A stretch of DNA of 63,785 nucleotides, counting the filler, from Hausera hauseri (Eukaryota), in NCBI GenBank assembly GCA_046269625.1. It is 11 parts of 11 records of this genome, joined end to end, with 100 filler letters (N's around TTAATTAATTAA, not from the genome) between each part and the next. Parts side by side here need not be neighbours in the genome. Positions count along the whole stretch, not along the records: positions 1 to 11,909 come from JBJURY010059995.1; 10 more parts are not named here. The stretch is one strand, 5' to 3'. Positions 1 to 55,576 of this stretch are shown here, piece after piece (within the stretch, counting starts at the first letter, position 1; each line of letters starts with the position of its first letter). Both the position numbers and the translations under genes were made by a program. Below the pieces are notes generated by a model that saw only the letters and a program-made list of their open reading frames with translations, was not told the origin of the DNA and did not search any database.

Positions 1-2
1 AA

Positions 3-998
3 ATCCTGAGCTAATAAACAATCATTTTGAATCATATCCTTATAAATTTGATATTGATTATTTACCATATAATGGAATAAATAATCTATTTTTCCGTTAT
101 AATAACTCATCGGTCTTACTTCTGTGGGATGTACGGTCTTCTGAGCGTTTTCTATTTCTATTTCTGAAACATAAATATTTTCCATATTAGTAGCAAAAAT
201 ATCTTCAACTCCACATCTAGTCACTTTTTCCTTTCGGATGAATCTTATAGAGTCTTCAATTTTCGTGGATATCATAATTGTTGGTGTGTCTATTTGTTCT
301 AATTTATCTTCCTCGTTTTCATTTCCAATGTTTCGTCGTGCAAACGGTGTACTGAGTCGTATTCCTCTGGTCACGTTAAATTTTACCTTTTTTAAAAAGG
401 CCAAATTACATTCAACCACCGGTGCAATCCAAGTAATAATTGAATCAGTAGTTCTACAGTACTCAGTGCCGTACTTACAATTTGTTTTGATCATCAATTG
501 TTTTGATTCCACATCGAATGAAATATCCTTTTCAATAATGGTTAATGTATACAGTGCTTGTACAACAACTCTTGCAACACCATCCACAGTGTTTCCATAA
601 CAATCTCCGTTAGCTGTAATAGACCCTTCCTCATTGATTGTATGATAATTTATAGCGTTTACGGCTGCTGCTATTTCGATTTTGTTATTTATTTTTAATT
701 TTCCTCTTTTTGCCGCATCTCTACATTGATCCATTGTTAATTCATGCGGTTCATTTGGGGTGGCCATTAAGATATTAGTTGAATGTCGATGTATTTTTCC
801 ACAGTGCCATTTCTTTATTTGCCTAGTTAGCTTACATTCTAGCGCTTTTACTCGTATGAATCTATTTTCTTGGTATATCCTGTAATTTTTAGTACCTTCG
901 AATATAAGTTTATCAGGCTCTGCATCTGGACATTTTTCTAGATCAACAAGGGAGTATGAAGCTCCAACCGCTGGATAATCGCAGTCATATGCTCGAAA
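3..998 (-). CDS. Chuvirus-type (class III fusion) glycoprotein ectodomain, N-terminal part
   Basis: FRAYDC..SYSLVDLEKC..LECKLTRQIKKWHCG..DQC..GSITANGDC..VVVQA..C..YC..W..C..RCG..YYNGKIDY..IYKDMIQNDC. Cys spacing and motifs match the Jingchuvirales G pattern as I know it. Preceded by the hydrophobic signal WLIILIIILCRGTHG (999-1043). Confidence 0.85.
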
Positions 999-3900
999 AC
1001 CATGAGTTCCTCGACACAGAATTATAATAAGTATAATTAACCATGTTAGATCATTAGTCCCTTGTCTAGGTAATGTACTACTAAGTAGCCTTTGTGCTTT
1101 AGTAAACAATTCAGAAAATTCATGTTCTCCATGACTATCTATTCTATATTCCTGTTCTGATATTTTACTTTCAGTCTTTTGAGGCTTATCAAAATTCAAC
1201 AAATCATTCCATCCTCCAATTCGATCTATATCTGGAGATATATGTGTTTTCAAAATTTCTATGACTACATCAAAACTACTCTCTCTTTCTTCAGTTGTAT
1301 CCGCCGAATTTTTAATTCTCATTGCTAAATATACTAAAATAGTGATAACTCTATCTTTTGTTAAACCTCCTGTCTTAATCCACTTTTGTATTATTTCACT
1401 ATCGTCTATAAGATCTATCCGTTCTGGTAATTGTTCATTTTTCACCGCAGTTTCTAATCGAACCAACGTTCGCTTTAAGTGATTTTCAATATCAAGAGTG
1501 AATGGCTCATCAATTAATAGGTCATTTTCTACTGGAAATAGGGAATTATAAATTCTCCATAAAATGGGTTTGATTTGCCTTGTTTCAAGATCCATTATTC
1601 GAATTTCACTTTTTCTTAGTGCTTTGGTTAAAGTATCAACTTTAACTTGCTCCCAAAGATTTTTCCTTGGACGACCTTGCGGTCTCTTATCAGTTTGTGT
1701 TGTTTCTTGTCTTGCTTGAAGCATATTTAATATATCTTTTACATTAGCTTCATTAATTAGATTTGATTGTTCTACTTCTTGTGAAATATCACCAATAACT
1801 TGGCTTGTTTGTTCATTCGGTCCTTCTGTCCGAACTGCCAATCCAGGAACTGATTGATCGATTTCCATTCTTTCTTGAGGAGCTGGTGTATGCATTTCAT
1901 CTTCAATATCCAGCCGTCGGATAGCTTCGTTTGATCCCAACACATTCTGTATACGCTGTTCTAGTTCTCTTTGCTTTAAGTTTTCGCTGTCTGTCCAATT
2001 TTCTAAGTGTACTGTAACAATTTCAGTTGGATCCATCCCATCCATAATTCCTAATTCTATCCATGGCCTTTCATAATTTAGGACAGTGCGACCCATAAAT
2101 GTCACTTGTTTTATTTGAATGTTCTCGTCGTCATATTGTAATCTTATCACTTCGATAGTTCCAATCATTGGTTCATCAACGTTTATAATAACTTGAAATT
2201 CACTAGTTTTATTTCTATATTTACCATATATATTTAGTTGAACTATTTCATTTTCCTCTAATCTTCTATCACTCATTCTTTTTTGATTATATCGTTGCAA
2301 TATCTCTTTTGCCATACTTGCTTCCAGTATGTGATCTGCGGCTTGTTTTACTAGAAACTTACGTATTCGAAGAAATCTTTCTCTATCTTCAATTAACCAA
2401 TTCATAATTCTATACATTTTATTCATAACAAGTGTGCAAACGTCCTCTTTATCACTGTTATTTAATAGCATAGTTAAATAATATTCAAACTGATCTTCTT
2501 CCGTTCGTATCTCTTCGATCTCCACCCCTGGGCCAAGCATCATAATTCGAGACATCTCTGTGGTATCTTTCCCTTTTTGGCTCTCGTCGCCGTAATTTTT
2601 ATCAAAAATATTTTTACCTTGCTTACTACCACCGACTATGGATTTGCCTTGACCTGTAAACCACGTATACATTCCTTGTATTCGTTTTGTTTTATCCATC
2701 TTTACTTTAGTACAATATTTTGATTTTTTTGACCGATTTTCGTATTTTGTTTTATCGGTGTAGACTTCTAAACCATTTTTATTTTCTTGACCTTTAGTCA
2801 ATACTGGTGATACATCTCTACTTATCATATGGTACGTATTTTCCTGTCGTACCTGATTAGTTGACTTCTCTTGAGTTGCCCTCAATCTTAGTTGTTTTTC
2901 TATTATTGAACCATCTACTCCATATCTCACTAACATCATCTTTTTATCAATTTTCTCATATTCTTCGTTTTCTTCATCTTTCTCCGATTGAATCCAGTTA
3001 TCCAAAAATACATGATATACCGAGCTATCCAATCGCTCTATTATTTCTCGCAATTTTATAAGTAAAACCATCGATATTTTCATTTCAAATCTTATATTTA
3101 ATTTACTAATACCCAGCATTCTTTTTACGCATTCAATCTCTACTTCACAAACATTATCAAATCCTCTTAAATATCGAATTCGTTTAACTTTTAATACACT
3201 AAGTTCTTTATTCATGGACACTTTGTTAAATTCATTTATCGTCTTAATTATTTCGTCAAAGCAATGACTACACTTATATCTTTGGAAAGAATTAATAGAT
3301 CGTCTGACCTTCAATCGTCTTTCTATTTCATTCTCCTCTTCTACTATATTTTCATTTAAGCCAAAACTTCCTGTCTTTAAAGTCTGTTTTAAATACGTTT
3401 CTAACTTCACTTTATTTATCTCAGTACTAGCTATATTTATGTGTGTCTCCGCATTCTCTTTAACTAATTTTGTTTCACTTACAATTTCACGATTCTGTAA
3501 GTCTACCTTTTTTGATAATTTTTCTGGGTCCTTCAATTTCTCTAGTCGTTTTCTTAAATCATGTCCCGATTCGTCTTTGGATTTTTCAGAATCTACTTTA
3601 TCTTCTTCTTTAATCATTAAACATTGCTTCTTAAATACATTTACTTCATTACAACCCATATTATCAGAATTTTCTAAGAAATTAACATCTATTTCCTTTA
3701 CATTATCATTCAATTTTATCCTTAATCCATCTGGTATACTCGCCTCTCCATTTATATCTGTCTCATTTATCTCATTAATTTCTGAACATCCATCATTAAT
3801 TTTTAGCCGGTTCAAGATTTGCAATTCATTACTCACTTCTATATTTTCGACTTTAATCTTCTCAATCTTTCGAGGTAGAGTTAGAATTTTAAGAGTCTCA

Positions 3901-5975
3901 ACACTCGACTCTTCCGTCAGCTCATTATCGCCCAACCTTTTACTGAATTCACTACAATTCCTAGAATCCGGTTCTACATCCGAATTAGATTGTATATCCA
4001 TTGAAAAATTGTCAATATTACATTCACTATTCAATATTACCGTGTTTAAGTCGAGTTCAGAACTCACATTCTCCTCACTTTCATTACTGGAATCAGTGGA
4101 CGGTGCCTTTAAATAATTTTCACTCAATTCATTTGCCATATAAATACATTCATGTTCCAACAGACTTTCAACATCCTTTATTTTTGACACTTCGGTCAGA
4201 TTTATTTCGACTGCATTTAATTCAGTACTTAGTTTATTTTCGTCTTGACAATACCAATTACTACAACTAGCTCCTTGTGGGTAACCGCCATATTTACTTA
4301 CAAACTTCTTTTCTTCAATTTCCCAAAATTTGAATACTTCATTATCAACATCATCATCCTGACTGATTTCTTCTGGGCAACCATATTCATGCATCATTTG
4401 TTTAATAGTTTTTATCTGTTCTGGATACTCTATTTTCCTACAATAACTATCACTCTTAGATTTTTCTTTTGATTTCTTATTCTTTACTCCAAACATACTA
4501 GCTTGATTTCCATGCAATACTTTTAACCTATCCAATTGAGTTCGCATCTCATCCCTTTCGGCTCTCAATTGTTTCAGTTCGAATTCTACATTTACACTAT
4601 TCGAATTTTGATAGTTTTCAACATTACTATCATAATTTCCTCTTGGATTCCATGTATTTTCATAACATTCCTGATTCTCATTGTCCCCCGATTCATTCAA
4701 TTGTGTCTGGAAATTTTGATTATTTTGCATAAGAGTTAGTTTATTATGGATTACCAACAATGGACATTTCTTCCAAACATGTCCTACTTGATTACAATGA
4801 TAACAAAATCTATTTTCATTCATCATACCTACCTGAGTTGGGCAGTTTCGGGCCACATGTCCCCACTGTGCACAAATATTGCACTGCTCAGGTTGTTGAA
4901 TATAAGGTGGCATTAATACCGGCGTTCTTTTTATTTCTGGGCAAGACTTGGCAATATGTCCAAATTTTTTACATTGGTTACACTGAATTGATCCTCTGTA
5001 ATTGACTTTGTCCCTTTCTAACGCCATTGCTTGTTGCTGTGTAGTTTGTGATCGGAGAGGATATCGTTTTTGTTGTTCTGGAGGGTTAATCCATTGTTTT
5101 CTATTCAAATTTGCTCCAGCGGCCATATCTTTAATAGGAGTACCCATTCTTTGTGGTTCTAGATTTGCCCTTATAGGTGGTTTTACAATATTTGGGTCGA
5201 TATTATGAAACAAATTTTGATTAATGTTCTGGTTAGTGCCTACATTCCAACGAGGCGGACCCCAACGCGGTATCGAAGGAACTTGCCAACCGGCCTGTCC
5301 ATAAGACCACGATGGAGTTCGCCACGCTTGGTTAGTCGGCCTAAAATTTCGATTTGGGTTTTGAAGTCTAGGGTTACTATTTAGGGTTTGGTTGTTATTA
5401 AATGAATTTTGATTGATTTGATTTAATTTATTCTCTACGTTTTCAAAATTTATTGCTTTTCTTATTAATTCACTCAAGGTGGAAACATCACTTTCGATCA
5501 ATTGTCTTTGAAGTTTGGGACTATTAAGTCCGGTGATAAAACAATCTATTAGAATTGGCTCTATAGCAAATATTTTAGGAGGACTCTTATCATCTTTATT
5601 TATTTCCTCTTTCTCTAAAGCTTCTTTGTATCGTTTACCTAGCAATTGTAAAGCAAATGCAAACTTATTAACTGATTCCCCAGGCAATTGCACTCTAGAA
5701 CGCAAACTTCTGAGTTTAGCACTAGACGATGGGTCAGGGTCTAGATTCCGTCGTAGTGTATCTACAAATTTATTCCAACTTAATTTCTCCTTCTCCTCAA
5801 TTTGTAAATAAGCCTGCAATGCTATCCCTTCAAGATGGGCAACTAAACGTTTGATTTTCTCTTTTTCATTCCACTCCAACCCATCTGCTTGTGCTGCGTA
5901 TACTAACATAAAATCGTCAAATTCAGACGGTTCACCTGAATACCTGCCTAAATTTAAATTAGCGAACGTAGACAT
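3..5975 (-). CDS. Gag-accessory-envelope polyprotein of a Gypsy-type LTR element (>=1991 aa, 3' end off-window; not in ORF track)
   Basis: Manual codon-by-codon check found no stop from ATG 5975 (frame open from 6113) to base 3. Capsid-like N-terminus (LGRYSGEPSEFDDF...W...KIKRLVAHLEGIA; MHR-like QLPGESVNKF) and three CX2CX4HX4C knuckles at 4764-4982. No D[ST]G protease, YxDD or DDE motifs seen. Confidence 0.9.
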   Translation of the reverse strand, partial: MSTFANLNLGRYSGEPSEFDDFMLVYAAQADGLEWNEKEKIKRLVAHLEGIALQAYLQIEEKEKLSWNKFVDTLRRNLDPDPSSSAKLRSLRSRVQLPGESVNKFAFALQLLGKRYKEALEKEEINKDDKSPPKIFAIEPILIDCFITGLNSPKLQRQLIESDVSTLSELIRKAINFENVENKLNQINQNSFNNNQTLNSNPRLQNPNRNFRPTNQAWRTPSWSYGQAGWQVPSIPRWGPPRWNVGTNQNINQNLFHNIDPNIVKPPIRANLEPQRMGTPIKDMAAGANLNRKQWINPPEQQKRYPLRSQTTQQQAMALERDKVNYRGSIQCNQCKKFGHIAKSCPEIKRTPVLMPPYIQQPEQCNICAQWGHVARNCPTQVGMMNENRFCYHCNQVGHVWKKCPLLVIHNKLTLMQNNQNFQTQLNESGDNENQECYENTWNPRGNYDSNVENYQNSNSVNVEFELKQLRAERDEMRTQLDRLKVLHGNQASMFGVKNKKSKEKSKSDSYCRKIEYPEQIKTIKQMMHEYGCPEEISQDDDVDNEVFKFWEIEEKKFVSKYGGYPQGASCSNWYCQDENKLSTELNAVEINLTEVSKIKDVESLLEHECIYMANELSENYLKAPSTDSSNESEENVSSELDLNTVILNSECNIDNFSMDIQSNSDVEPDSRNCSEFSKRLGDNELTEESSVETLKILTLPRKIEKIKVENIEVSNELQILNRLKINDGCSEINEINETDINGEASIPDGLRIKLNDNVKEIDVNFLENSDNMGCNEVNVFKKQCLMIKEEDKVDSEKSKDESGHDLRKRLEKLKDPEKLSKKVDLQNREIVSETKLVKENAETHINIASTEINKVKLETYLKQTLKTGSFGLNENIVEEENEIERRLKVRRSINSFQRYKCSHCFDEIIKTINEFNKVSMNKELSVLKVKRIRYLRGFDNVCEVEIECVKRMLGISKLNIRFEMKISMVLLIKLREIIERLDSSVYHVFLDNWIQSEKDEENEEYEKIDKKMMLVRYGVDGSIIEKQLRLRATQEKSTNQVRQENTYHMISRDVSPVLTKGQENKNGLEVYTDKTKYENRSKKSKYCTKVKMDKTKRIQGMYTWFTGQGKSIVGGSKQGKNIFDKNYGDESQKGKDTTEMSRIMMLGPGVEIEEIRTEEDQFEYYLTMLLNNSDKEDVCTLVMNKMYRIMNWLIEDRERFLRIRKFLVKQAADHILEASMAKEILQRYNQKRMSDRRLEENEIVQLNIYGKYRNKTSEFQVIINVDEPMIGTIEVIRLQYDDENIQIKQVTFMGRTVLNYERPWIELGIMDGMDPTEIVTVHLENWTDSENLKQRELEQRIQNVLGSNEAIRRLDIEDEMHTPAPQERMEIDQSVPGLAVRTEGPNEQTSQVIGDISQEVEQSNLINEANVKDILNMLQARQETTQTDKRPQGRPRKNLWEQVKVDTLTKALRKSEIRIMDLETRQIKPILWRIYNSLFPVENDLLIDEPFTLDIENHLKRTLVRLETAVKNEQLPERIDLIDDSEIIQKWIKTGGLTKDRVITILVYLAMRIKNSADTTEERESSFDVVIEILKTHISPDIDRIGGWNDLLNFDKPQKTESKISEQEYRIDSHGEHEFSELFTKAQRLLSSTLPRQGTNDLTWLIILIIILCRGTHGFRAYDCDYPAVGASYSLVDLEKCPDAEPDKLIFEGTKNYRIYQENRFIRVKALECKLTRQIKKWHCGKIHRHSTNILMATPNEPHELTMDQCRDAAKRGKLKINNKIEIAAAVNAINYHTINEEGSITANGDCYGNTVDGVARVVVQALYTLTIIEKDISFDVESKQLMIKTNCKYGTEYCRTTDSIITWIAPVVECNLAFLKKVKFNVTRGIRLSTPFARRNIGNENEEDKLEQIDTPTIMISTKIEDSIRFIRKEKVTRCGVEDIFATNMENIYVSEIEIENAQKTVHPTEVRPMSYYNGKIDYLFHYMVNNQYQIYKDMIQNDCLLAQD
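1197..1590 (-). other. Bcl-2-like domain within the polyprotein
   Basis: BH1-like KWIKTGGLTKDRVITILVYL and BH2-like ILKTHISPDIDRIGGWNDLL in correct order and spacing; upstream BH3-like IENHLKRTLVRLE. Confidence 0.65.
1662..1688 (-). other. AT-hook motif within the polyprotein
   Basis: KRPQGRPRK versus AT-hook consensus K/RPRGRPRK. Confidence 0.6.
2001..2250 (-). other. Ubiquitin/SUMO-like domain within the polyprotein
   Basis: VQLNIYGK..FQVIINVDEPM..VTFMGRTVLNYERPWIELGIMDG..IVTVHL resembles the beta-grasp pattern (FxGxxL..ELGxxDG..IxV); no C-terminal GG. Confidence 0.5.
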
Positions 5976-6197
5976 TTTCTGTTCTTCGAGTTGGTTATAA
6001 TTTTCCTCTAATTCAATAGATTCTTGCTCGAAAACTTTTCTCCTAAAATTTTCTTTAACTAAAACCTTTTCCTGGTATCCTTCCAGACTCACCCTTGAAA
6101 ATTTCTTATAGTCTTATGATCAGAAACTATTTGTACGAATGCTACTCAACGAAATTTTCTGTGTCTAATTTTATAGTCTAGTTTTAATGAGATCAGG

Positions 6198-6215
6198 GTC
6201 CTGGCGTGGTCGCCA
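6198..6215 (-). promoter_or_regulatory. Primer-binding site complementary to a tRNA-Arg 3' end
   Basis: Minus strand TGGCGACCACGCCAGGAC, a few nt after ...AAACA and 220 nt before the gag ATG. TGGCGACC is the tRNA-Arg PBS start known from mdg1/412-type Gypsy elements. Confidence 0.85.
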
Positions 6216-6220
6216 AAATT

Positions 6221-6829
6221 TGTTTGTTTATACGTTATTTTATCACTACCCCGCTCCCAGATTAAATTGTTATGATTTACTTGATTTAACTCTAATTAAT
6301 TTTCCCCCTTTTTTCTTTTTTTAACTACTATGATTTTCGTATTCTTTATCACGTAATTTCCACTTTAACACAAACCTTCTTCAAGGCTTTTATCCCCTTG
6401 CTTTTTCTATCGTTATTTATTAATATCCAAACGAACTGGCTAAAGTGCTCCGAACCCGATTGAGATCAGACAAACTAAAATGACTACGATAGTGTAGGCC
6501 CACAAAAAAACAACTAGGTATGATTTTATCAAAATCAACAAGGAGTTTATCAATCACGAGTAGAAAATTGTGGCAATTTAACAAATCGTCCACAATTTTC
6601 TAACTACACACAGACGATTTTTTTCAAGCACAATATTTAGGGCCTTAGTTTACTTTCTTTCTTTCTAAGAAAGGAAATATGACAATTAAAGTATAATAAT
6701 AAAAAAATTAAGAAAAATTACCACCCACTTGAAAGTAATTTGTTTATTTCTTCTCTTTTTCTATTCCCCAAAAGTCGAAACTCTACAAGCTCGATTGACC
6801 ATCAACGTCGGTTAAGATTTTAAATAACA
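6221..6829 (-). repeat. Putative LTR (~609 bp)
   Basis: Minus strand starts TGTTATTT right after a purine tract and ends AAACA just before the PBS (TGTT...AACA inverted termini). No second copy is in the window, so the 5' boundary is inferred. Confidence 0.6.
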
Positions 6830-6842
6830 TTCTCCCGTTTTC
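6830..6842 (-). promoter_or_regulatory. Putative polypurine tract
   Basis: Minus strand GAAAACGGGAGAA directly before TG. Confidence 0.55.
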
Positions 6843-7173
6843 ATAAATAAGATAACTCGATGATTCTTCCTTTATTTTTTGTCAGTCTTTCTATTTCTAC
6901 TTTGTATATATATATTACTAATTAAAAAAAATGTTAACAATGTGTCTCATGCAATTGTCTTGAAAATTGCTATACAGTGAAATAATCAACCATCTCCACA
7001 GTTCCCATAACAGGAACTGTGCCTCTGAGGCAATCAGATTTACAATAAAAGAAATTTAATGAGAATATTTAATTATTGCCTCAGAGGTAATCAAATTTAC
7101 AATACAATCAGATCTACAACACAAGAGGGGGGACAAAAAAATATCGTCTTCCACTGGCGATAAAAGGTACAGT

Positions 7174-9057
7174 TCATGGTGAATCTAATACGATTTGATC
7201 AGTCCATGATGAAAAGTCGTCAAATAATGAGCGAGTGGGTGTTGGTGTAGGAATGGGTTTCTGAGGGCTTCCGATGGGTAACAAAGTATCTGTATCTGAA
7301 ATATCACCTGATTTTGATTGGGTTGGTATTGTGGAAGTAGGAAAAGTGGTTACATCTGTGCATAATAAGGGGTTAGTGATATTTGTAGTTTGAGATATCT
7401 GAAAGGTTTTTTTTGCTTGGTAATGGAAGGAATTGAGTGGTAAAGATTGCATAGCGGGGCTATCAGCATCTGTCGGTACGCGAAGAGGTGGTAAGAAAAG
7501 ATCTGAGGTAGGGTTTTCGAGGAAAGAAAAGTGTTCCCAATTACATTGTGGGATTGAGGATAGGGGTTTATACGGTAGTGTATTTGCCAAGTCAGATAGG
7601 GCTTGTGGACGCCATGGGGGTAAAAGCCAGTTAAATCGTCGTCTTTCTTTGTAGATGTCATGGACAATAAATATCATGTATTCAGCGTCCATTTTACTTG
7701 GTATAAAGTAATCAGTCGATTTGTATATGGCAGGAAAAGGTTTAAAGCCATTTTGACTATAGTTGAGGTCTATATACCCTAGTAATAGCTTGGCTGAAAG
7801 ATGCCAAAGGTTCAGGAAGTAGAGTGGGTCGAAAGTAACCAATATTCTGCCATATATGGCACGTTGAACATGGGCTCTACAGAGGGCGAAATCTGGTGCA
7901 TGATCAACATCATCTAAAGATATACTATGACAATGTTTATCCACATTATCAATTTTTTCTCTAGGGCAAACAAATGTCTTGTATTTTATGTTAAGTGGTC
8001 CATCTGGATCGGTACTAAGATCACCCAAGTAAATATGAATTACTACAGGAAGACTGCCTGAAAATGCCACGGCGTAGCCGGCGAAAATAATTTCCTGAAT
8101 AGGGTACGGATAGGGTGTTCGAACATAAGAATGTGGGATAGGATTCGGGGGTTGGGGTAGCCAGTCAAGTTCATTTAGGGGCACTTGTCCATTAATTGAT
8201 GTATCCAAATAACGGCGCCAAGGTGGAATATCCACATATTCTAGTTCTATATACGTAACCGAATTCTCTCTCATTAGGATGGTAAAGGAATGTGAACTCC
8301 AGACATCTGCTGTCAAAAGAATAGATTTGAACGAAGATAAGTATACTTTAAATATGGGTAGGGGTGGTCTGTGGATCTCTAATACAACAGATCCTTTAAT
8401 AACAGATAAAAGCATATCTTTTGGTTGTAGTGGAAAATTCTGAATGGAAAATTGTTGGTCTAAGATTTGTCGCATGGGGAATGGCCCATAATTGTGTGAC
8501 CAATAAGAAATCAATATACAGCGATCTTGCAGGCTATTACTTTTGAATTTATTAGGGATTGTGAACACAGAAGGATATTTAAGTGTAATGTTGCGAAATA
8601 ATGTATCAAAACGTACCGAGCGATATGTGGATCTAGAACGTAAAATTTCAAAAAGGAAAGGAATAGATGATCCCTTTGGCAAAAAAATGGGAATGCGTGG
8701 CATTTGTTGCAAGTTGGCAAATTGGATACTTTGCCCGATATTACGGATTGGTGGGGCATACATTAAAAAATAGGAGGTATTAGAATAAGACGTAGAAGCG
8801 AGGGGTAAGAGAAGTAAGGGAGGGTGAATTGTATCCATAGTTTGTTCAACGGATGCTTCACCACTTTCGATGCGGATAGTAGACTGCACATAGGTTGATC
8901 TCTGGAGCGGTATTGATGTCATACGGAGATATCTAACTTCACTGATGCAATAAGTCACTGAGATCACCTTGATGCTTGAGTGATCTAAAAAAGTAAAGTG
9001 GGTGTTAGACCACTGTGCCCAAGCCTGAAAACAATAGGCCGTGGCCGACTTTAATTG
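7174..9057 (-). CDS. Unknown Pro-rich 627-codon domain, probably expressed by stop-codon readthrough
   Basis: Track ORF 7174-8967 is in frame with ORF 9058-9393 and open up to its TGA; context TGA CAA TTA. Confidence 0.7.
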   Translation of the reverse strand, partial: QLKSATAYCFQAWAQWSNTHFTFLDHSSIKVISVTYCISEVRYLRMTSIPLQRSTYVQSTIRIESGEASVEQTMDTIHPPLLLLPLASTSYSNTSYFLMYAPPIRNIGQSIQFANLQQMPRIPIFLPKGSSIPFLFEILRSRSTYRSVRFDTLFRNITLKYPSVFTIPNKFKSNSLQDRCILISYWSHNYGPFPMRQILDQQFSIQNFPLQPKDMLLSVIKGSVVLEIHRPPLPIFKVYLSSFKSILLTADVWSSHSFTILMRENSVTYIELEYVDIPPWRRYLDTSINGQVPLNELDWLPQPPNPIPHSYVRTPYPYPIQEIIFAGYAVAFSGSLPVVIHIYLGDLSTDPDGPLNIKYKTFVCPREKIDNVDKHCHSISLDDVDHAPDFALCRAHVQRAIYGRILVTFDPLYFLNLWHLSAKLLLGYIDLNYSQNGFKPFPAIYKSTDYFIPSKMDAEYMIFIVHDIYKERRRFNWLLPPWRPQALSDLANTLPYKPLSSIPQCNWEHFSFLENPTSDLFLPPLRVPTDADSPAMQSLPLNSFHYQAKKTFQISQTTNITNPLLCTDVTTFPTSTIPTQSKSGDISDTDTLLPIGSPQKPIPTPTPTRSLFDDFSSWTDQIVLDSP

Positions 9058-9350
9058 TCATAAGATAGTTGTATAAACACCATCGGTTTGCCTATTCACA
9101 ATCTCGTCGGGCACAAAATAATTCAAATTAAAGTTAATATCATATTGTGGTATATTTTCATATTCGTTTAGGTACTCTGCATAAAATGTCTTATTGGATC
9201 TCTTAAGATACACGGCAAGTGAACAGCATATTATGATTGCTATACCTGAAATAATAATTACAACCACCCATGTATAGAAGAGAGGGAATGAATTTTGTTT
9301 AGATTTCACAAATGCACTAGTTGTTGAGGCCGGTATACGTGAAAAAAAAA
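9058..9350 (-). CDS. Transmembrane anchor and cytoplasmic tail of the integrase-fused glycoprotein (frameshifted at a T9 run)
   Basis: WVVVIIISGIAIIICCSLAVYL followed by KRSNK and Tyr motifs YENI/YTTI; overlaps the end of the upstream ORF at the homopolymer 9342-9350. Confidence 0.65.
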
Positions 9351-11746
9351 TAAAAGGTAAATTTTTGTTTCCAATTTGAAAAATTTGTTTCAAATAATAT
9401 GGGTTTTTCCAACGGTTTGGGAATTACAAGACGTGTTGTATTGCGTTCATGCGCTGCTGACTCAGACAAGGATTGGTTTGGTGTAAAGTTAACTGTTGTA
9501 GTTAAAGGGTCCATTTTTGTAGGGACAATTCGTGAGTCCAACGTAATGACTTTTGGTCTTATGTGTGGAGGTGAATTAAATGAGAATAAATGTTTTAAGT
9601 TCAGCGTCGTGTTAATTATAGGTTGACGTGATGAGTTTACCAAGATTGCGAACTGAATCCGACATACAGAGGGTCGAAAATGGATATCTTCTTTCTTTAT
9701 TACTACAAGCCGAGGTGAAGACGGTCCCACGGACACCAGCCAATGTTTTCCTATGTATATAGCTTCCAATACTGGAGGGTTCCACCGTGTTCGTAAAACA
9801 TCAATATAAGAATAGGGGATTGCTTTCCACAAAAATGATCCCAATGTAAATAAAGGTTGAACAGGGGGAATCAACCAATCGTGTATGAAATATATGTTTG
9901 TCTCGGATATTGGAATGGTAATTCTGACCCATGTCGGTTTATTATAATATATTGGAAAACGTGGTAAATCAAGGGATAATTTTGGAACAATAGTCCGTCT
10001 AGTAAAATTTAGTCTAATTCCTTCAATCTGTACTAAAACTCCGGATTGTCCTTCAGTCCATAAGTACTGATAAACCAAGAATGGTTCTCTGAAGATCCGA
10101 AACGAAGGTGTTTGTAAAGGTGGCGTTTCCCACCTGTCGACTATTGTCGTTGAACCTTGGTCAAAGAAGGCGAAAGTTTGTTGCACTGTGGGCTTGTCCA
10201 CAGGATAAAAACATGCTCCGCCAGGTGACTCAATTGTACATAGGCCAAGAAATTCTACTGACCGGTTATCCCAAATATGAAATATTAAAACTTTAACAGT
10301 GTTAGTCGTCTGAGGAATATTTGTGTGTAAATAAGTTATCTGGTTTTGATGTCTCCAACCCATATATATTGCTGGTCGACATTCGTAATTTCCTAAGCAG
10401 TGAAGTATGGTAAAAAGGAAAGTTGCGTATAGAATACGACTTTCAAATAATGTAGAGCAAATTGGTTGAGTAGGATCTGTTACTTTTGTTTTATCTTTCT
10501 TTTCATCTTCCGGTTGTTTTATTTCTGGATCTTTACTTTTCGATATGGGCGGAGAAGTCAATTTGCACCATTCTGCTGCTAGACAAACAATTTCATTACG
10601 TTTGCCTACTTTCTTTTTAATAAAAATATTGTTATCTGTAACTCGTTCAACCTGATAAGGTCCTTTCCATGGACGAGTTAGTTTGGGTGATAGACCTTTC
10701 TTTGTTACATGGTCGTAAACCATTATCCAATCATCTACTTGAATTTTATGGGGTCTGGCATGTTTATCATATTGCTTTTTATATTGTTTTTGGTAGTCCA
10801 ATGTTAGTGACTGAGCTAAAGCCCAAGCCTTCGTTAATCTTTCCTTTAGATAGTTTACATAATCTGGTTCACTTTTTGCCAATGCTTCCTTTGGTATAAA
10901 TTCTAAATCTATGGGTAGTAATGGTTCTCTTCCATACATCAAATAGAATGGAGATTCATGCGTTGCTGTGTGTGGCGCAGATCTCAAAGCGAACATACAG
11001 GCTGGGATAAATAGATCCCAATCATCTTGTCGATCGTTTGTTACTGTTGCCAGCATTGACAATAGTGTCCCATTTAATTTTTCTACCATTCCATCTGTTT
11101 GTGGGTGATATGCAGCGGTTTTAAGTTTGTATATAGTAAATAGTCTGCACACTTCTTCAAACATGTGATTTATGAATTCTCTTCCTTGATCTGTTAATGT
11201 TTTTCGTGGAGCACCATACCGAAAAACTATTTCTTCAACAAACAAAGCTGCAACAGTAAATGCCGTCTTATCAGGCATTGGAAAGGCTTCCGGAAATCGT
11301 GTCAAATAATCAATGAATACTAGTATATATTGGTTGCCACTTTGTGTTTTATGTAATGGACCGACAATATCCATTGCAGTAAATTCCATTGGTCTTGCTG
11401 GTGGTGTTATAGGGTGTAATTGCGGTTTACTGCGTAGTCCTCTAGCTCGTCTAGTTGCACAGATTTGACAATCTTTACACCATTGTTCCACATCCTGCTG
11501 AACAGTTCTCCAATAATATTTTGTTTTGATTCTTCCTAACGTTTTTTTGAAAGCCGGATGACACGCCAACATTCCATCATGTTCTTGGTGTAGTATGTCT
11601 TTTCGTTTTTCCAATGGTATTACAATTAGTTGTTTATTACGGTGCCAATATCTTACTAGATCATTAATAATAAGATAGTGTGATCCTTGATTTAATAAAT
11701 GGTGCATCAAGGCTTTCTCTTCCGTATTAATTTTCTTTGTTCTCAA
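9317..11746 (-). CDS. Gypsy/Ty3 integrase with ~370-aa glycoprotein-like C-terminal extension (pol 3' end; 5' part frameshifted and truncated by contig end)
   Basis: HHCC (H..HP..C..C), MDIVGP, DYLTRF, TDQGREF, YHPQTDGMVE, WKGPY; then hydrophobic ILYATFLFTILHCLG (10391-10435) and several N-X-S/T sequons. Confidence 0.9.
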   Translation of the reverse strand: MRTKKINTEEKALMHHLLNQGSHYLIINDLVRYWHRNKQLIVIPLEKRKDILHQEHDGMLACHPAFKKTLGRIKTKYYWRTVQQDVEQWCKDCQICATRRARGLRSKPQLHPITPPARPMEFTAMDIVGPLHKTQSGNQYILVFIDYLTRFPEAFPMPDKTAFTVAALFVEEIVFRYGAPRKTLTDQGREFINHMFEEVCRLFTIYKLKTAAYHPQTDGMVEKLNGTLLSMLATVTNDRQDDWDLFIPACMFALRSAPHTATHESPFYLMYGREPLLPIDLEFIPKEALAKSEPDYVNYLKERLTKAWALAQSLTLDYQKQYKKQYDKHARPHKIQVDDWIMVYDHVTKKGLSPKLTRPWKGPYQVERVTDNNIFIKKKVGKRNEIVCLAAEWCKLTSPPISKSKDPEIKQPEDEKKDKTKVTDPTQPICSTLFESRILYATFLFTILHCLGNYECRPAIYMGWRHQNQITYLHTNIPQTTNTVKVLIFHIWDNRSVEFLGLCTIESPGGACFYPVDKPTVQQTFAFFDQGSTTIVDRWETPPLQTPSFRIFREPFLVYQYLWTEGQSGVLVQIEGIRLNFTRRTIVPKLSLDLPRFPIYYNKPTWVRITIPISETNIYFIHDWLIPPVQPLFTLGSFLWKAIPYSYIDVLRTRWNPPVLEAIYIGKHWLVSVGPSSPRLVVIKKEDIHFRPSVCRIQFAILVNSSRQPIINTTLNLKHLFSFNSPPHIRPKVITLDSRIVPTKMDPLTTTVNFTPNQSLSESAAHERNTTRLVIPKPLEKPILFETNFSNWKQKFTFYFFFTYTGLNN

Positions 11747-11909
11747 ATTCTCTGATTATTTGTAATTCTGGATCCTTTTCCTGTAAACATATTAATTTCT
11801 AAATATCGGTCTCAGTCAATTGATTATCGTGTAAATCTTTATGAAATATTAACATTTGAGAAACATGAATTTGTTTACATTCAGTTTCGAGATTTTCTAA
11901 TTCTTGTTT

Positions 11910-23235: not shown

Positions 23236-24631
23236 TTAGATGTCAATATTATGAAACAAGGCACGCAGATAGTCCTTAAGATCACGCCCTGCATATTTAG
23301 AAAGAAATGCAGCAAGACGTCTTGATAGTTGAGCGTATTTAGACTTTCTGGTAATTCCGCTCTGTATACGACTGATGGTTTGTTCTGTTAAGTCTTGTTC
23401 ACGACGGAAATGATCAACCAATATGTGAATAGTAGGATATTGGCACGCGACAGACGATTGGAACGCGTTATACCAACCCTCTGAGTTATTTGTTCGCGGC
23501 AAGTCATCAGCAACACGTCCTCGCATGTTCCACATGGTGATAGGAAACAACGGGTTGGCTCGTCGATTGCGTCTCAAGCAACCAACATAATTGTTTATCT
23601 AGTAATCATAAACATTTTTGAGATTATCGGGTCTACTCGCTCAGTTCATCGAAAGCGGACCCAATATACTCCAGAGGAACGAAACTCAGTGCAATTAGCA
23701 TCTTTGAATACATTTTAATGTTCTCGTTGTCGCGATACAAATGAGATAAACCTTTGTTTTGTATTCTACACTATAATGACTGATCAAGTTGAAACAGACA
23801 ACCAAGTACGATAGCATTTAGAAGTACAGTAGACAGTGCGTTCATACCTCCTTGCTCAAAATCGATCAGAATGTTAATAGGCGTGAGATTGTCATAGTTC
23901 TGGCACTTTCCGGAAAACCCGATCATAGTTAGGTCGTGTTTTTGTTCCCATGAGCACATTAATGGAATTGAGCGATTCTCAATTAAAGCATGTATGGTAA
24001 ATACCTGTAGAAATATCTTGGGAGCTACCTTGAATGTTCCGTCCATAAAGCAGTGCAGATATTGCTCCAAAAATTACAAATTTGCTGCAGTGCCGAACAT
24101 GGAGATTCTGTTTGTGTCTTGATTACTCGAATCCCAGAGAAGCAAATTTTCAGAAAGTGTTGTTACCTTCATAGTATCCGGGAGAATGATGTCTTTAATA
24201 GAATCTGGCCTCGGACTGGTGACATAAGGTGCCTTTCGTTTCCGCTCGACAGTACGTTGGCTTGTCGAATACGACGGCAAAAGATGGGTTGCTTCCAGCG
24301 AGACTGCTGCTGTGCTGTTCAAAATAATTTGACGAGGTTTTTCCACTCCATTTTCAGCTTGTTCGCGTATAGTCGCCTTCATTTTCTCGCTTTTATTTTT
24401 TGCGATATTTGGTGCGTGCATATGTTCAGTACTTGTTTGTAACGTCTCGTCTGTTTTCTTACGTCTGCCGGCACTCTTAACGCACCTCCACGAAGACGAT
24501 CCATCTTTATTTACCTTGTCGCATCGATATCGATAACTTTCATACAGCAGTTGTTGTTTTCCTTTCGGTGACCTAATAATATCCATGTAGTATTTTACTG
24601 ATTGTGTTGTGTTGATGTTTTGTCGTCCCAA
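23236..24631 (-). mobile_element. MULE (Mutator-like) transposase pseudogene with N-terminal FLYWCH
   Basis: KGKQQLLYESYRY..WRC, MDGTFKVAP..QVFTIHA, IDFE, GCLF, RTNN..EGW; stops and frameshifts. Confidence 0.9.
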
Positions 24632-24999
24632 TAAATATCCATCTAATATTGCACTAATTGTGTTTTGTTGATGTTTTCTTGACCTAATAAATATTCATGT
24701 AATAGTTGACTAATTGTTTTTTGTTGATGTTTTGTCGACCTAATAAATATCCATCTAATATTTTACTAATTGTGTTGTGTTGATGTTTTGTCGACTAATA
24801 AATATCCATCTAATATTGCAGTAATTGTGTTTTGTTGAAGTTTTGTCGACCTAATAATATCCATCTAATATTTTACTAATTGTGTTGTGTTGATGTTTTG
24901 TCGACCTAATAAATATCCATCAAATATTTGACTAATTGTGTTTTGTTGATGTTTTGTCGACCTAATAAATATCCATCTAATATTTGACTAATTGTGTTT
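24575..24999. repeat. ~59-bp tandem repeat, ~7 copies
   Basis: Unit taataaatatccatctaatattttactaattgtgttttgttgatgttttgtcgacc. Confidence 0.9.
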
Positions 25000-25099: not shown

Positions 25100-28000
25100 T
25101 GAAAATCACAGAACCCTCTATGGACACGATTATACAACGCTTCTTCCACGACAATGTTATAGACACACAACGACCATCAGAATTTTTACGCACATCTTTG
25201 GCACATCTGCACACTCTCGGTGTCACTAAAGAACACTACCCCGAACTATTGCGTCATTACTTTCTTAACGCGTTACTCATCCAAATTCGGGCTTTATTTA
25301 CCGTGGTGGAGGACTCCACGGCTATTGAAAAATTGGCCGAATTAGCCGCTAAACACATGATGTTCTACAATTACATTTACCACCAGTCGTTTCGGCGGCA
25401 GTTGCCCCTAATGATATTCAATCCAATAACATATCAATAGAACAACAACTCAATCAGCTATGTGCTAAAAATACCGCACTAAACGCAACCATTAACAATA
25501 TAAACAACAAATTGATCTAGCTTTTCCTGTCTCGGCGAAGGGATTTTCTTGCTGAACGCGCCAATTCTGCATCTAAAAACCGGTCACCATCGCCTGCGCG
25601 GTCATCAATCTGCTATTATCAAAACAGATTCAATAAGAATGCCAAGAAATGCAGCCTAGGATGCAAATTTTACAACAGAAGTTTTTCTTCAGACACCGTT
25701 GTTTGCATTTACCACGCAAAGTTGAAAAATCAAGCCCGTAAATGCATTCCAGGCTGCACTTTTAAACTAGATACGAACGACGGACACTACCTTTTCTTCT
25801 AATAGTCGTCCTAGTTCACCTTTTCAAAAAAACTAAATTTGCCGCAAGAAGTCATGCAAACTCTGGTAAAGGCACTACTTTACTTTCTGAATGCCGACAC
25901 GACTTTTCTGCTGTCTTTACTCTAAAGGCTCCAATCACCGCTCCTACGACGCAATCCGTTGATTTCCTCATTGATACAGGTGCAGCGATTTCCTTATTAC
26001 CACAATTTTTTCCTGTACAAAATTCACCATTCAGAATTAAACCCTTACACACCGCTTCAGGTCAACCGCTGCACATTTCTGGCACGGCTAAATTATCTTT
26101 TATCTTACCAAAATTTCCTTCACCTTTCCACTGGACGTTCACAGTTGCCAACGTCGAAATGACAATTTTAGGGTCCGATTTCCTATCACATTATAATTTA
26201 TTGGTTGACTGCAGTTAACGATGTCTGAGGAGCGGCATCACTAGCAGCATTGCTGAGCATGCCAATAGCATTTCGACTACGGTGCAATCAATCGAGACAC
26301 AGAGGTCAATTTTGGGAAAATCAATAAATAATTCGAATTTCCATAACAATTATTCAATTCGTAAATTTTTAAATAATAATATTGATCTTCTATCGATGTT
26401 CGATGTCGATAATTGTGGTACTTCCACCAATGTTCATTCACTTGACGAAATCACTTTATCCAACACCATTTTAAATTCGACCATCTTACACCAAATATCA
26501 CTTGTGTGCACATCACAAAACAATTCACAAATCGCAGCCGCTACTACTCAAGCTGCTTCATCATCATCATCAAATCTATCACAGTTGCCTACAACTTTAC
26601 AGCAATTCCGTGCCACATCATGTCCACGCGTACTTAAAAAGATCGTTCGTTTACATATACAAGCAGCACTGTACATCACAATTACACAGCATTAACGACC
26701 AATATGCCAAAAGATACGACCACTGTCACCTTGTCGTAGACAGGCTGCAGAAGCCGAATTTCTTGAACTAGAACGCTCCGGAATTTTACGCCGTCCCAAA
26801 TCTCCTTGGTCGTCACCTTTACACATTGTACAAAAAAGGACTGTACTTTTAGACCATGCGGTGACTGCCGCCAGTTGATCAACTTGACAATCATGGATGC
26901 ATACCCCTTGACACTCATCAAGGACATCCTGCATCGCCTTAATTCAACTATCATTTATTCGACCAACGATTTGGCCAAAGCATACCACCAAATACCGGTG
27001 GCACCCGAAGACATAAAAAAACTGCCGTTACTACTTCTTTTGGCCTCTACGAGTACCTGTTTATGCCATTCTGTTTGCGAAATGCCGCACATACTTTCCA
27101 GCGACATATCGACTCAATTCTCTCAGATTTCCCGTTTGCGCACCCTTAAATTGATGATATTCTGATCGTTTCGTCTTCGGTCAAACAACACGAGGAACAC
27201 CTTTGCGCGATATTCCAACGCCTTCACCACCATAATCTCCAAGTCAATTTCGACAAATGCCATTTTTCAAAAAACTCATCAACTTTTTAGGCCACGTTAT
27301 TTCACCAGACGGCCACTCTCCTCAACCAGACCGAGTTGAAGCCATTAAAAATATCCAATTGCCACGTACAACCACCGAAATGCGCAGCTTCCTCGGTACC
27401 CTACACTTTGTATATAAATATGTACGATATTGCTCCGAATTGACACCACTATTTGCACACTTAAGCGGTGGCAAAAAACATCAGCCAATCCAGTGGACAC
27501 CTGAGTTGGTAGACAAATTTGATAAATTACGCGAAGGAAATAAGACCATCGACATTCTCGCTTTCCCCAAGCCTGATGCAGAACTCATCCTTACTACATA
27601 CGCTTCAACAACTGAGGTAGGTGCTGTACTTCACCAGATCTACAAAGGATAAAATCAACCGCTAGAATTTTTCTCTCGCAAGCTAACACCCCCTGAAACC
27701 AGATACTCAACGTTCGATCGAGTTATTGGCCATTGTTCTTGCTTTAAAGCATTTCTCCCACCTACTTGTCGCTCGCCATTTTACTATACAAACCGATCAC
27801 AAAACCTTACTTATAACATCATAGCTATGAAACATGCTTCCACACGCCAAGAATGACAAATATCATACTTGTCGACTTTTAACTCCGACATAAAACATAT
27901 TAATGGGGGTAATAAATTGGTGTCCGACTTTTTATCTAGGTCGGTTAGTTCGATTAATTTTTCACAGATTTTTACGCTAGCTCAACTTTAACAGAACCAG

Positions 28001-29828
28001 CCACCTCAAGACATGCTTAATTCTTTAAAGTCTTGCACAATTGTTGACGGCGTGACTTTAGACATTTCCAAACCAGGTTATTCCGTAATAATTCTCGCAC
28101 CATCATTGCAAAGGCGAGAATTTAATAGCGTACATTCGCTACACCACCCTGATGCTAAAGCCACTTTTTGTTTACTCCATCGACAAGTAATATGGCAGTC
28201 AATGCGTTCTTATGTGCAGGCGTGGGTTAAAGAGTGTGTGGATTGCCGAAAATTCAAAACAACTAAACATTTAAAGACACCATTGTTCCACTTCCCCTGC
28301 ACATTGCGTTTCGACATCATTGGCCCTTTTCCTCCAGACAGAGGTTATCAATTCATTCTCACCATGATGAATCGTTCCTCGCGATGGCCAGAAGCCATCC
28401 CTCTGCGCAGCACGAACACAGATACCATAGCTGACGTTTTCATTCGTACATGGATTAGCAGGTTTGGATCACCTCGTTTTATCGTCACGGAATAGGGTCC
28501 ACACTTTGAATCCAACCTGTTCAAATCCCTTGTTAACCGATTGGGGTTCCATTACATGCATACTACGCCTTACCATCCCCAATCGAATGGCCTTCTAGAA
28601 CGCTTCAACCGAACATTGAAAACGTCACTAGGAATTGTTGCATCGTCCAACACTAGTTGGACGAATCTTCTTCCGTTTGTTCTGCTTGGCTGGCTGAACA
28701 CTCCGTCTACTTCTACGGGATGCTCACCTACTGAAGCCTTATTCGGAGCTCCTGTACGATCATTGTTCGAACCAACTGCTTTACACGACACTCCTACAGA
28801 TGAAACGACACGGACGGCGCGAAATCCCTTCGTTACGGTCAGCAAAGATTCGCTCTGTAGGATACTTCACAAAGACAAAACATATTTACCCGAAGACTTG
28901 TATTCGACAAAATTCGTATGGCTAAAAAATCAAACACCGTGCAGTTTTCAGCCGCGGTATCTGGGGCCCTATAAACTGATATAGCTGCATTCATATCATG
29001 CTATTATCTCTAAAGACGGCAAAGAACTTACAGTACATATTACCAACTTAAAGTCCGCCTTCTTTGTCGACGACACTTTACCAATGGACACGTCAACCTC
29101 TTTCCTCACTCCTACACTTCCTACTCTTCCTTTATCTGTTGCTACATCAGTTTAACCTCCTCCTTCTGCTTCTAGTTCTACTTCATCATTCTCCACACCT
29201 TTTACTTTTATTTCTATCTCTTTTCCTTTTTCTACCACTCCCGCTGTGTCATTTTCTACTTCTACTCTTCCGCCTAACAGAATTCCAATTTCTACTTCAA
29301 TTTCCGTTTCTCGTCCTTCATCTTCTAACACTGTCTTGAATACCTTTAACCGTCCATTTTCAACAATGTCTCTTCTTCCTTCACCTTCTTCTTCTCTTCA
29401 TTTTGACTCGTCTTTGCACAACACAACATTCACTACAAAATCTGACAATTTTTTCCCTAACTTCAACCTCTGCAAGCAAACACATCCCATAAAGACAACA
29501 TATGCAGAGTCATATTTAGCAAGTATAGCAGGGAAAAATCAGTAGAATGCACCAAACGTCTTGCTTACACTAAGACCAATTGACACAGGCTCTTTTTGTT
29601 TAGCGATTTTTTCTTTCCGTCTATTTTGATTTTTATAGTTTTCACTTTGCCACGGAGGTGATGTGGTGCCCACGATGGCCGGTGCCCATTGGCCTATTTG
29701 GTCGGGCGCGGCAGGGCGTCCGTTGCCGCCTCGTCGGGCTCATAGTCGGGTCCGATCTTCCGCCTCTAAATCGACTGTCAAGAAAAACACGTACTATAAA
29801 TGATCGTACTCAACAATGTCCTTCGATG
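25100..29828 (+). mobile_element. Decayed CsRN1-like Gypsy LTR retrotransposon (gag-PR-RT-RH-IN, PPT, partial 3' LTR from 29662)
   Basis: CHCC-type gag fingers, FLIDTGA, RPCGD, DDILI, YSTFDREL, DIIGP, YHPQSNGLLER, RYLGPY; many stops and frameshifts. Confidence 0.9.
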
Positions 29829-32362: not shown

Positions 32363-34790
32363 TTATTTTTTAGCACTTTTTACACTAATTGCAATGTGAG
32401 TACGCGTCTTAATACCGTCTTCTTGAATCACACGTTTGTCATCCCTATTATTCAGATTCATTTTCTGCAGATGTACAGTCGTCACAATATGTGAATGGGA
32501 TCTGATTGAATTCATCATATTAATTTTTACCTGATCACCATGTAGTGCCTTAATATAGTCATCCATAGTTAATTGATCTCGTACAACCGCCCGCTGGGCA
32601 CCTTTTGGCCGTTTCTTAATGATATCACCGACAGCTCACGCATACATTTTTAACACGGGACCCACGAATCGTGTGATTATTGAGCTGTTCACTTCGTCTT
32701 TAAACTTCCCCAATACTTTTTTATTGACTAAAGAGTGATTCGGGTGATTCGCTGGATAATCACTCGTATTCATGTTTTATGCCATCACCATGGAATTCGC
32801 AAAAATATCTCTCGTTTTTATGCTAAACATGAGTGAGTCTGTATCCATGTACCGTAATTGCAGATTTTCCCAGCCAAACCTAAGCAGCATTGTGTTATAG
32901 TGGAAGTCGTACATGAGTATTTTGCTCAAATCCAAAATACACAAGCAGACATATATTAGCTTACTGAATTTGATCCGGTCTTTTCCGAAGTCAATACAGA
33001 TGAGGTTTTCCATGTAGATTTCCGAATTTCGAAATGTTCGTTTTCTAATGAGTTTTCTCGCTCGCTTCCACTCGGTAACCAGTTCGATATTTTGCCGCTT
33101 CCTTATATTTTCCATCGTCTTCCCGAACATGGCATTGTTGTAAAGCTTGAAGCTCCGTACTAAATTGAATGTAACGTTCTAGCCAGGGGATTGACTGAAT
33201 TGCAATGTCCTTCCGATTTCAGTGACTTTCAGCCCATGTTGAATGGCCTGTTGAAGTAGTCGACACTATACAACGTACCGTTATCGATTACCGAGATGTA
33301 GAATCAGATTTTTTAATTTTTCACTTCTGAAGCTCGGTACCTTAACCGATTCCGGCAGAAATGACAGCTGGTTATGTAGTTTATGTAAGTTCTTATGGTA
33401 CTCAATACCCACTTGAAATATATACCCTGCGGAGGATGTTGGACTAATTTCCATTATGTCCGTATCCATGTTGCCGATCCATTCCGTCCATCTGAAGTCT
33501 CCGTACGGAAGATAGTGGGACATGGCCCACCCGTAGACATTGTTAGCATACAGATATGTGATGTACCGTGTCTCTTTTTCTCATCGTACTTTTTACCCAT
33601 ATGCTTATTGTTGGCTTCAGCGTATCGGTGCACTACTTGATACAGTCCACCACGAATCCCATGCTCCAGCATGATAATTATGTTAGTCTTTATCTGCAGT
33701 TGTACCTTGGTATGTTTCAATATTGCATTCCAAGAGATTCCAGGGGTAGTGAAATAATGTGCCGGATCTACTTTGTATGTGGCCATGGTGACAGCTCTGA
33801 ATCTCTTGAATACATCAGTGAGCAACAGTCCGTCAGTCTTCAGGCACACGTCACTGTACTTTGTATGTTTGACCCAGTCGGGTAGCGGAATATAGGAGGA
33901 ACCACCTATTGGCGAATACTTACTCGAATACTCAGTTGTCGGATTGCAGATAGCATCCATCCGCTTTTCTTCATTTCGCTTTCTCCAGTTTCATTGATTA
34001 ATTTTTCGAATTCACCATCATTGAAATCCTGTAAATCAGTTTCTTTAAGCACGGGCTTATTCACAGTTTTGAATGCCCGTTGTGTCGTTTCGCCACCGAC
34101 GTTAACGAACAATGCTTCAAGGAAAAAGCTTATTTTAAGTGAATTGTTGCAATATACTTCATCCTGTAAAATTCCTTGGACCTCCGACTGGCAGAATTCC
34201 GGAAATTCACGGATTGTCTGCGTATGATAGTTTGTGTGGGTTTTGGTTCATAGCATGTTTTTCGGCTACTCGGACTCAACGGCTTTATTTGGTTTTGCAT
34301 TCGAATGTGTTTTAAGTTTGACTGCCGTGGTTGTGTTGACTGTACTTGTTGACAGCTGCGTAGTTTGCATGCATGTTTGCAGAATATCACGTTTCTTCAG
34401 TGTTTCAAAGCGTGCAAGATGGTCTGTGTGGAGATTATAAAAGTCAGGGAATTGAGATTTTTCTGTAGTTTTACAATTTGGGCAGACAGTAAATTGATCC
34501 ATTAAATCTGGTCAAATATTTTTCCATTTCTTGGGAGTTGAGAAAGATGTTGATTTCGAGATTTGGTTTCTTTCTTGAGGTAGAATTGATTGAGACATTT
34601 GTTTCTCTGTGAGTGATGCATTAAACTGATTTGAATGTCGTTTATGCTGTTCGTAAAATTCCAAATACGAAGCAGCATCGGCAGATTGACATTGTGGGCA
34701 TAAGTAATAAATAAGTCCGTTTTTTGACGTTTTGTAATGTTTTCATATCTGATGGCATTGACCTAGACCATGCATTTTTGAATTGCAATA
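32363..34790 (-). pseudogene. Polinton/adintovirus polB, internally deleted and frameshifted
   Basis: GSSYIPLP, DPAHYFTTPG, IRGG, FGKTMENIRKR, YMDTDSL, GKFKDE, DDKR. Confidence 0.9.
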
Positions 34791-38775: not shown

Positions 38776-38821
38776 TTTATGTTACAGTCGCCTTTACATT
38801 CCCAAATTTCCTGACACCCTA

Positions 38822-54241: not shown

Positions 54242-54384
54242 CGTTGTCGTCGATGGTGTCGGTTTTGCTTACATTGCAACAATTTGAACGAAACGTAAAT
54301 GAAAGATTCGGTAAACTGGGACAGAAAGATGAAAACAATGCTCCCATATCGCAAATCACCATATACTTACAGTCATCGTTTATA

Positions 54385-55560: not shown

Positions 55561-55576
55561 CATTTTGCAGCTTCAT

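Follow-up and report, generated by a model that had tools for sequence, protein, structure and literature searches.

A divergent Ty3/gypsy element of Hausera hauseri with Gag, cargo and envelope in one frame, and probably a Burro-like gag-cargo-env-pol order

Two described systems come closest to the element reported here, judged from the parts of their papers that were covered. The giant gypsy-like planarian element Burro/GYPSM1 has one open reading frame (ORF) of ~4900 amino acids (aa), encoding Gag with CCHC knuckles, a Ubi/SUMO-like domain, a BCL2-like domain, a mononegavirus-like envelope glycoprotein (env), protease and pol; its env lies between BCL2 and protease, in frame between gag and pol, and the processing of env and cell-to-cell movement of such elements are open questions (PMC6431247). 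Errantiviruses with a GAG-ENV-POL order and a glycoprotein B (gB)-type env are reported from Platyhelminthes (9 rows), Bryozoa (10 rows) and Nematoda (PMC13524379). We analyzed a stretch of 63,785 nucleotides from the H. hauseri assembly GCA_046269625.1 (the window), which strings together 11 pieces with 10 N spacers between them. Its first piece (positions 1–11909, from JBJURY010059995.1) carries a long minus-strand frame that an earlier note had read as a gag-env polyprotein with no pol. Our analysis suggests that it is probably part of a Burro-like Ty3/gypsy element of gag-cargo-env-pol order, present in the assembly as a permuted or tandem piece. This gene order is not new, having been published for Burro (PMC6431247) and for the GAG-ENV-POL errantiviruses (PMC13524379).

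The frame reads, in order, Gag, a spacer, a possible ubiquitin-like stretch, an AT-hook-like GRP motif, a Bcl-2-like domain and a chuvirus/gB-type glycoprotein. Its features are as follows, where P0006 and other P-numbers are labels for database proteins related to the element.

3..5975, minus strand: Gag-cargo-env ORF, 1991 aa, open at the contig end (ORF scan)
5376..5960, minus strand: Gag capsid region, aa ~6–200 (Ty3_capsid on a sequence tile; Gag similarity to relatives)
5049..5066, minus strand: RYPLRS motif, aa 304–309, candidate chromatin tether (motif comparison with relatives)
4764..4982, minus strand: three CCHC zinc knuckles, aa 332–404 (Pfam)
2400..4745, minus strand: acidic, lysine/asparagine-rich spacer with ~800 unassigned residues (profile and family searches)
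1980..2270, minus strand: possible ubiquitin/SUMO-like domain, a lead only (Atlas feature matches; P0006 counterpart)
1659..1682, minus strand: AT-hook-like PQGRPRKN with its GRP core at aa 1434 (alignment to the RGRPK in P0006)
1197..1403, minus strand: Bcl-2-like helical domain, about aa 1525–1593, a BH1-BH2-type half ending in GGW (profile against PDB)
996..1052, minus strand: hydrophobic signal-like stretch opening env, aa 1642–1660 (sequence)
3..1001, minus strand: chuvirus/gB-type (class III) fusion glycoprotein, N-terminal half up to the contig end (PF24664)

The stop-free frame runs from 6113 to 3 (2037 codons) with its first ATG at 5975, and a frame this long has a chance of ~1e-79 at the local base composition. 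This confirmed the uninterrupted frame of at least 1991 codons, running off the window end, that had been noted before. Its start had been placed 220 nt past a primer-binding site (PBS), and a PBS-like site indeed begins at 6215; the ATG lies 240 nt beyond that base and 223 nt beyond the site's 18th base. The 11,909-bp contig terminates at position 1, with the frame about halfway through env. Because the contig end cuts the frame there, an absence of pol is unreadable in this DNA.

At the start of the frame, three CCHC knuckles (beginning at aa 332, 365 and 391) and a weak Ty3 capsid match (E 8.8e-4, Pfam on a sequence tile) bore out the proposed Gag, with the capsid plus CCHC nucleocapsid of Ty3/gypsy elements; it is 25–35% identical to the Gag of P0003, P0006, P0154 and P0156. 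The viral glycoprotein proposed in the same frame was likewise recovered, as the Monjiviricetes fusion glycoprotein family PF24664 matched from aa ~1642 (E 7e-26), its best stretch covering profile positions 4–211 of 653. The env is of the chuvirus/mononegavirus (herpes simplex virus/gB) type on this match, and it follows Gag and cargo in frame with no pol between, as in Burro and the GAG-ENV-POL errantiviruses.

Neither the whole ORF nor env gave any match in word-index protein searches; a HMMER search with the last 500 aa of the ORF as query did find relatives, giving 163 matches of which the best 150 were examined. Nineteen of these 150 are 900 aa or longer. In the best 12 long env relatives (E ≤ 2e-17) a protease follows env in the same protein in 10, and Pfam detects a reverse transcriptase in five; the remaining seven long matches are distant and showed no pol. 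P0154 (3865 aa) and P0156 (4029 aa) are complete Gag-env-protease-reverse transcriptase-RNase H-integrase proteins, and these two together with P0007, P0008, P0017, P0021 and P0151 join env and pol in one protein. The window env aligns with aa 1133–1475 of P0154, whose env extends to ~1782. P0007 is filed as a protein of a Flavobacteriaceae metagenome-assembled genome, which is probably contamination. Up to seven protease-like repeats, with ankyrin and C2H2 cargo, occur per polyprotein in P0151, P0009, P0005, P0155 and P0157.

Upstream of the frame, the same contig holds one LTR-like unit (long terminal repeat, LTR) and, beyond it, an integrase.

6198..6215, minus strand: putative PBS, TGGCG.. 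(sequence)
6222..6829, minus strand: single putative LTR, ~608 bp, TG...CA, purine tract before and PBS after (sequence)
6830..6841, minus strand: polypurine tract (sequence)
7174..9057, minus strand: orphan 627-codon ORF between integrase and LTR (ORF scan)
9058..10444, minus strand: tail behind integrase resembling a type I membrane protein, interrupted by a frame change (signal-like stretch plus transmembrane helix)
10538..11716, minus strand: integrase (H2C2 + rve) of Ty3/gypsy type, in the env-in-frame clade (Pfam, relatives, tree)

The LTR is flanked by both a PBS and a polypurine tract, no second copy of it was found within the window, and Rfam gave nothing at gathering level around it. 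Searched alone, the integrase gave 44 matches, the five closest at 44–50% identity against 29–42% for the other 39. P0154 and P0156 are among those five; P0155 and P0157 begin inside pol. All 44 relatives have the gypsy-type Pfam set of reverse transcriptase, RNase H and H2C2, which we take to be a mark of gypsy. A quick tree of 50 integrases placed that of the window in a 10-row clade (SH-like approximate likelihood ratio test, SH-aLRT, 99) with five env-bearing proteins. IMG/VR gave no relative of the integrase, and a metagenome scan with it returned generic gypsy loci only. The contig carries the gypsy-type integrase, and protease, reverse transcriptase and RNase H would lie off it; the order protease-reverse transcriptase-RNase H-integrase holds in the relatives. 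The left end of the contig maps to P0154 aa 1475 (mid-env), and the integrase match starts at P0154 aa 2944. Across five relatives the gap between the two contig ends spans 3.3–7.1 kb, holding the rest of env together with protease, reverse transcriptase and RNase H.

We favor the gag-cargo-env-pol order because the contig ends flank the protease-reverse transcriptase-RNase H interval of the relatives, with a clade-matched integrase behind the same LTR, and because so many of the best long env relatives carry the in-frame protease. Judged from these relatives, the polyprotein likely extends beyond the contig end, with protease, reverse transcriptase, RNase H and integrase following in frame, and the lack of pol claimed in the earlier note, which the data do not support, is most likely an effect of that end. 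The single LTR would then close the integrase-bearing half as its 3' LTR and open the gag-env half as its 5' LTR, and the contig would be a piece of one family in permuted order, with the 3' end first, then the LTR, then the 5' end. Such a layout could arise from collapsed LTRs or from two copies in tandem, and the whole element would measure about 16–20 kb.

Several observations weigh against this. The DNA beyond position 1 is unseen, so that the in-frame pol is something we infer. The integrase half contains one stop and two frame changes, of which the stop and one of the frame changes immediately precede the integrase, versus none in the gag-env frame; with one half damaged and the other intact, the two may derive from different copies. 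Two close relatives, P0011 and the shorter P0002, stop close to the C-terminus of env and carry no protease, and P0006 ends inside env. The integrase tree rests on a quick method, and the env and integrase similarity ranks of seven relatives agree weakly (Spearman 0.68, p 0.09). In addition, no contig of either sequencing run described below spans the whole stretch 1–6660, and MATH, BIR and Smc gave no Pfam match in the part of the element seen.

The broken integrase half beside an intact gag-env frame, the 6 kb seen without pol, and the ends of P0002 and P0011 at env would also fit a two-part system, in which a multi-copy pol-less gag-cargo-env unit borrows enzymes from a pol-bearing partner sharing its LTR. 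We consider this unlikely, given that the contig stops inside env, that a protease follows in frame in most of the best long relatives, and that the contig ends bracket the missing pol interval of the relatives. It is similarly doubtful that a divergent gypsy lineage has split into a Gag-cargo-env particle unit and an LTR-sharing partner. If it had, the first unit would make particles with an anti-apoptotic cargo and a chromatin tether of its own (RYxLR moved from integrase to Gag), and the partner would supply pol, a second surface protein and the orphan 627-aa protein. A pol-less element is not established by these data. A further alternative keeps the gag-env-pol order and puts pol in a frame of its own behind env, entered by frameshifting or read-through. 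P0002 and P0011, ending near the env C-terminus, would suit it, as would the description of ORFs arranged GAG-ENV-POL, whose fusion is unspecified in the covered text of PMC13524379. The seven proteins that join env and pol make it improbable.

We next consider the gag-env join itself. No protease or reverse transcriptase-RNase H profile matched the spacer, in six frames of 1–6200, so that nothing of pol was found between Gag and env, as the earlier note had stated. The reverse transcriptase-RNase H profile did find decayed pol elsewhere in the window (E 5e-38); the protease profile was weak, its best control reaching only E 0.009. Copies of the stretch 1–6660 were surveyed in the contigs of two sequencing runs (stretch share 0.69 in X1 and 0.16 in the other), the first of which, X1, may be the source sample and then gives no independent support. 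Related contigs numbered 4349 and 400, and all 30 bins were covered in both runs; 19 and 3 contigs extended past the stretch ends, with loose ends beyond position 3 in both. An assembly chimera, or an in-frame pol deletion in one copy of a canonical gag-pol-env element, would be consistent with the lack of a single spanning contig and with the odd multi-gene frame on another contig of the window. We hold either to be very improbable and largely refuted: the spacer holds no pol remnants by a profile that detects them elsewhere, and the 15 contig joints examined, of 16 in all, were of low depth, none marking a pol-sized insertion. Unrelated proteins also show Gag, cargo and env in this non-canonical order in one frame, which argues that the join is neither a chimera nor a one-off deletion.

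The family is multi-copy and diverse. Identity of the X1 contigs was ≥99% in 485, 95–99% in 943, 90–95% in 1866 and <90% in 1055, and as most related contigs are 85–95% alike, the proposed recent origin was not borne out. Two X1 indels are listed inside the ORF, each three letters long. The 40 best-supported of 932 differences comprised 19 silent and 21 replacing changes and no stops, where 33% silent are expected (p 0.04); silent changes made up 9/13 in env and 7/22 in the spacer. This is a weak sign of purifying selection on env, and the idea that the element is under selection stands to that extent and no further. Its description as intact among decayed elements was not confirmed, since the decayed copies sit on other pieces behind artificial N spacers and are uninformative for this locus. 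Within 5986–6660, summed contig depth was 57–125 in the leader and LTR versus hundreds or thousands in the ORF. Together with loose ends at 5986, this drop indicates that subfamilies seem to share the ORF and differ in leader and LTR.

For the cargo, the Bcl-2-like domain directly before env, as in Burro, was supported by a profile of seven sequences (window plus six relatives), which matched Bcl-xL in PDB (best E 4.4e-5); the best 60 of its 189 PDB matches were all Bcl-xL or Bcl-2. The window sequence alone gave no Bcl-2 match, so that this support needs the profile with relatives, among which P0002, P0040 and P0006 have weak Pfam Bcl-2 matches. Matches to mS25 and glutamate dehydrogenase were taken as chance. 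The AT-hook-like motif also stood, its GRPRK at aa 1434 aligning with RGRPK in P0006; GRP[RK] arose by chance in 461/20000 shuffles. The ubiquitin-like domain was not confirmed and stays a lead: Atlas feature scores to SUMO-like/ubiquitin clusters were 0.78–0.81, below the 0.9 mark, and the corresponding place in P0006 matched ubiquitin at E 0.031. The window tile of this region had no Pfam match, its single-sequence folds were poor (predicted local distance difference test 36 and 57) and uninformative, and Foldseek found no match from such a fold. In P0006 the order is likewise Gag, ubiquitin-like, GRP, Bcl-2, env.

A comparison with relatives also drew attention to RYxLR, which is found after integrase in 8 of the 9 relatives in the clade and in 0 of 39 other integrase polyproteins, a pattern noticed post hoc. 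The motif is not in the window's integrase ORF and is present in its Gag at aa 304; it arose in Gag by chance in 342/20000 shuffles. The motif is a candidate chromatin tether and presumably resembles the chromatin-binding motif of foamy virus Gag. The foamy virus Gag motif has a key arginine (PMC6042332).

In the mechanism we propose, RNA made from the LTR would be translated into one polyprotein, whose internal signal-like stretch at aa ~1642–1660 would send env into the endoplasmic reticulum. Cuts by signal peptidase and by the element's protease would then set Gag, cargo, env and the enzymes free. Packaging of the RNA together with a tRNA primer would be the task of Gag, the GRP and RYxLR motifs may tether the complex to DNA or chromatin, the Bcl-2-like module may damp host-cell death, and env could permit passage between cells.

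The 627-codon ORF and the integrase tail had no family match in Pfam, PDB or NCBIfam. The transmembrane helix of the tail lies in a 121-codon piece (9423–9061) beyond the frame change. By inspection, a signal-ectodomain-transmembrane tail also follows integrase in P0007, P0008, P0151 and P0154–P0157; BLAST found no match between these tails. On the coding strand of 7174–10444 (minus strand; integrase tail and 627-codon ORF), C exceeds G and A roughly equals T, versus the A-rich gag-env half, and this 3' part was perhaps acquired separately. A hairpin with ~14-bp arms lies ahead of the purine tract at 7021–7088 (minus strand), within the 3' untranslated portion, where the Rfam match was weak and below gathering.

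Compared with Burro, the window element shares an N-terminal Gag with three CCHC knuckles and BCL2-like cargo followed in frame by a mononegavirus-like glycoprotein; the Ubi/SUMO-like domain that precedes BCL2 in Burro has only a possible counterpart here (PMC6431247). Burro, as described in the covered text, exceeds 30 kb, against our estimate of 16–20 kb with an LTR of ~0.6 kb, and carries MATH, BIR, Smc and ankyrin cargo, none of which was matched in the part of the element seen, so it is not a Burro in the strict sense. Its Burro-like membership most likely holds by architecture, as opposed to direct comparison with Burro sequence. The GAG-ENV-POL errantiviruses, compared by description, are multi-copy Ty3/gypsy elements with a gB/chuvirus-type env before pol; Bcl-2/ubiquitin-like cargo, a post-integrase membrane protein and an extra 3' ORF go unmentioned in the covered text (PMC13524379). 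Anakin LTR elements, of the BEL/Pao lineage, reportedly carry the same chuvirus/gB type of glycoprotein (PMC7642597); we rejected membership there, as the window Gag and integrase have gypsy-type relatives and not a BEL/Pao-type Gag and pol. A canonical gag-pol-env errantivirus was also rejected, env being fused to Gag with no separate env ORF after pol, as was Troyka, which is without env as described in the covered text (PMC12440569).

Nearer to hand, P0154, P0156, P0151, P0008, P0007 and P0006 are ~30% identical in env and 42–48% in integrase. As a group they offer env-protease-reverse transcriptase-RNase H-integrase in one frame followed by the membrane tail, and the GRP-Bcl-2-env order of P0006. 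The window element differs from them in having RYxLR in Gag, where in the relatives it follows integrase, in the Bcl-2-type GGW motif that P0154 and P0156 are without, and in its ~800-aa spacer and 627-codon ORF, which match none of the six. What is new here is minor: a divergent lineage, RYxLR in Gag instead of behind integrase, and the orphan ORF. A keyword-level literature search, mostly at the level of listings, found no report of a pol-less form, a post-integrase membrane protein or the motif shift. With an integrase ≤51% identical to any relative found, the element is a divergent addition to a class of virus-like retroelements that has received little study and that puts an envelope and apoptosis-related cargo inside the Gag polyprotein. 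Through the relatives, this layout recurs across many assemblies, with a second membrane protein after integrase.

Elsewhere in the window, the whole 4.4-kb contig at 12011–16417 (minus strand) is one stop-free frame in which an ionotropic glutamate receptor is joined to ferlin C2 domains, a stretch without assignment and a piece of coatomer beta, which looks like an in-frame chimera or stitched gene model. Three decayed copies of an ordinary env-less gypsy family lie on separate contigs (25766–28984, 47584–48813 and 58769–62137). Decayed pieces of a protein-primed DNA polymerase B and an rve integrase, which we take to be Polinton/Maverick-like, occur at 51022–58124 and 33454–33990 (minus strand). 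Spectrin-repeat exons and a FLYWCH-bearing transposon piece were seen at 41110–43593 and 24074–24694 (minus strand); taken with the glutamate receptor, they suggest that the host is an animal. Tandem repeats of a ~106-bp unit occupy 37107–38776, where GC skew is strong.

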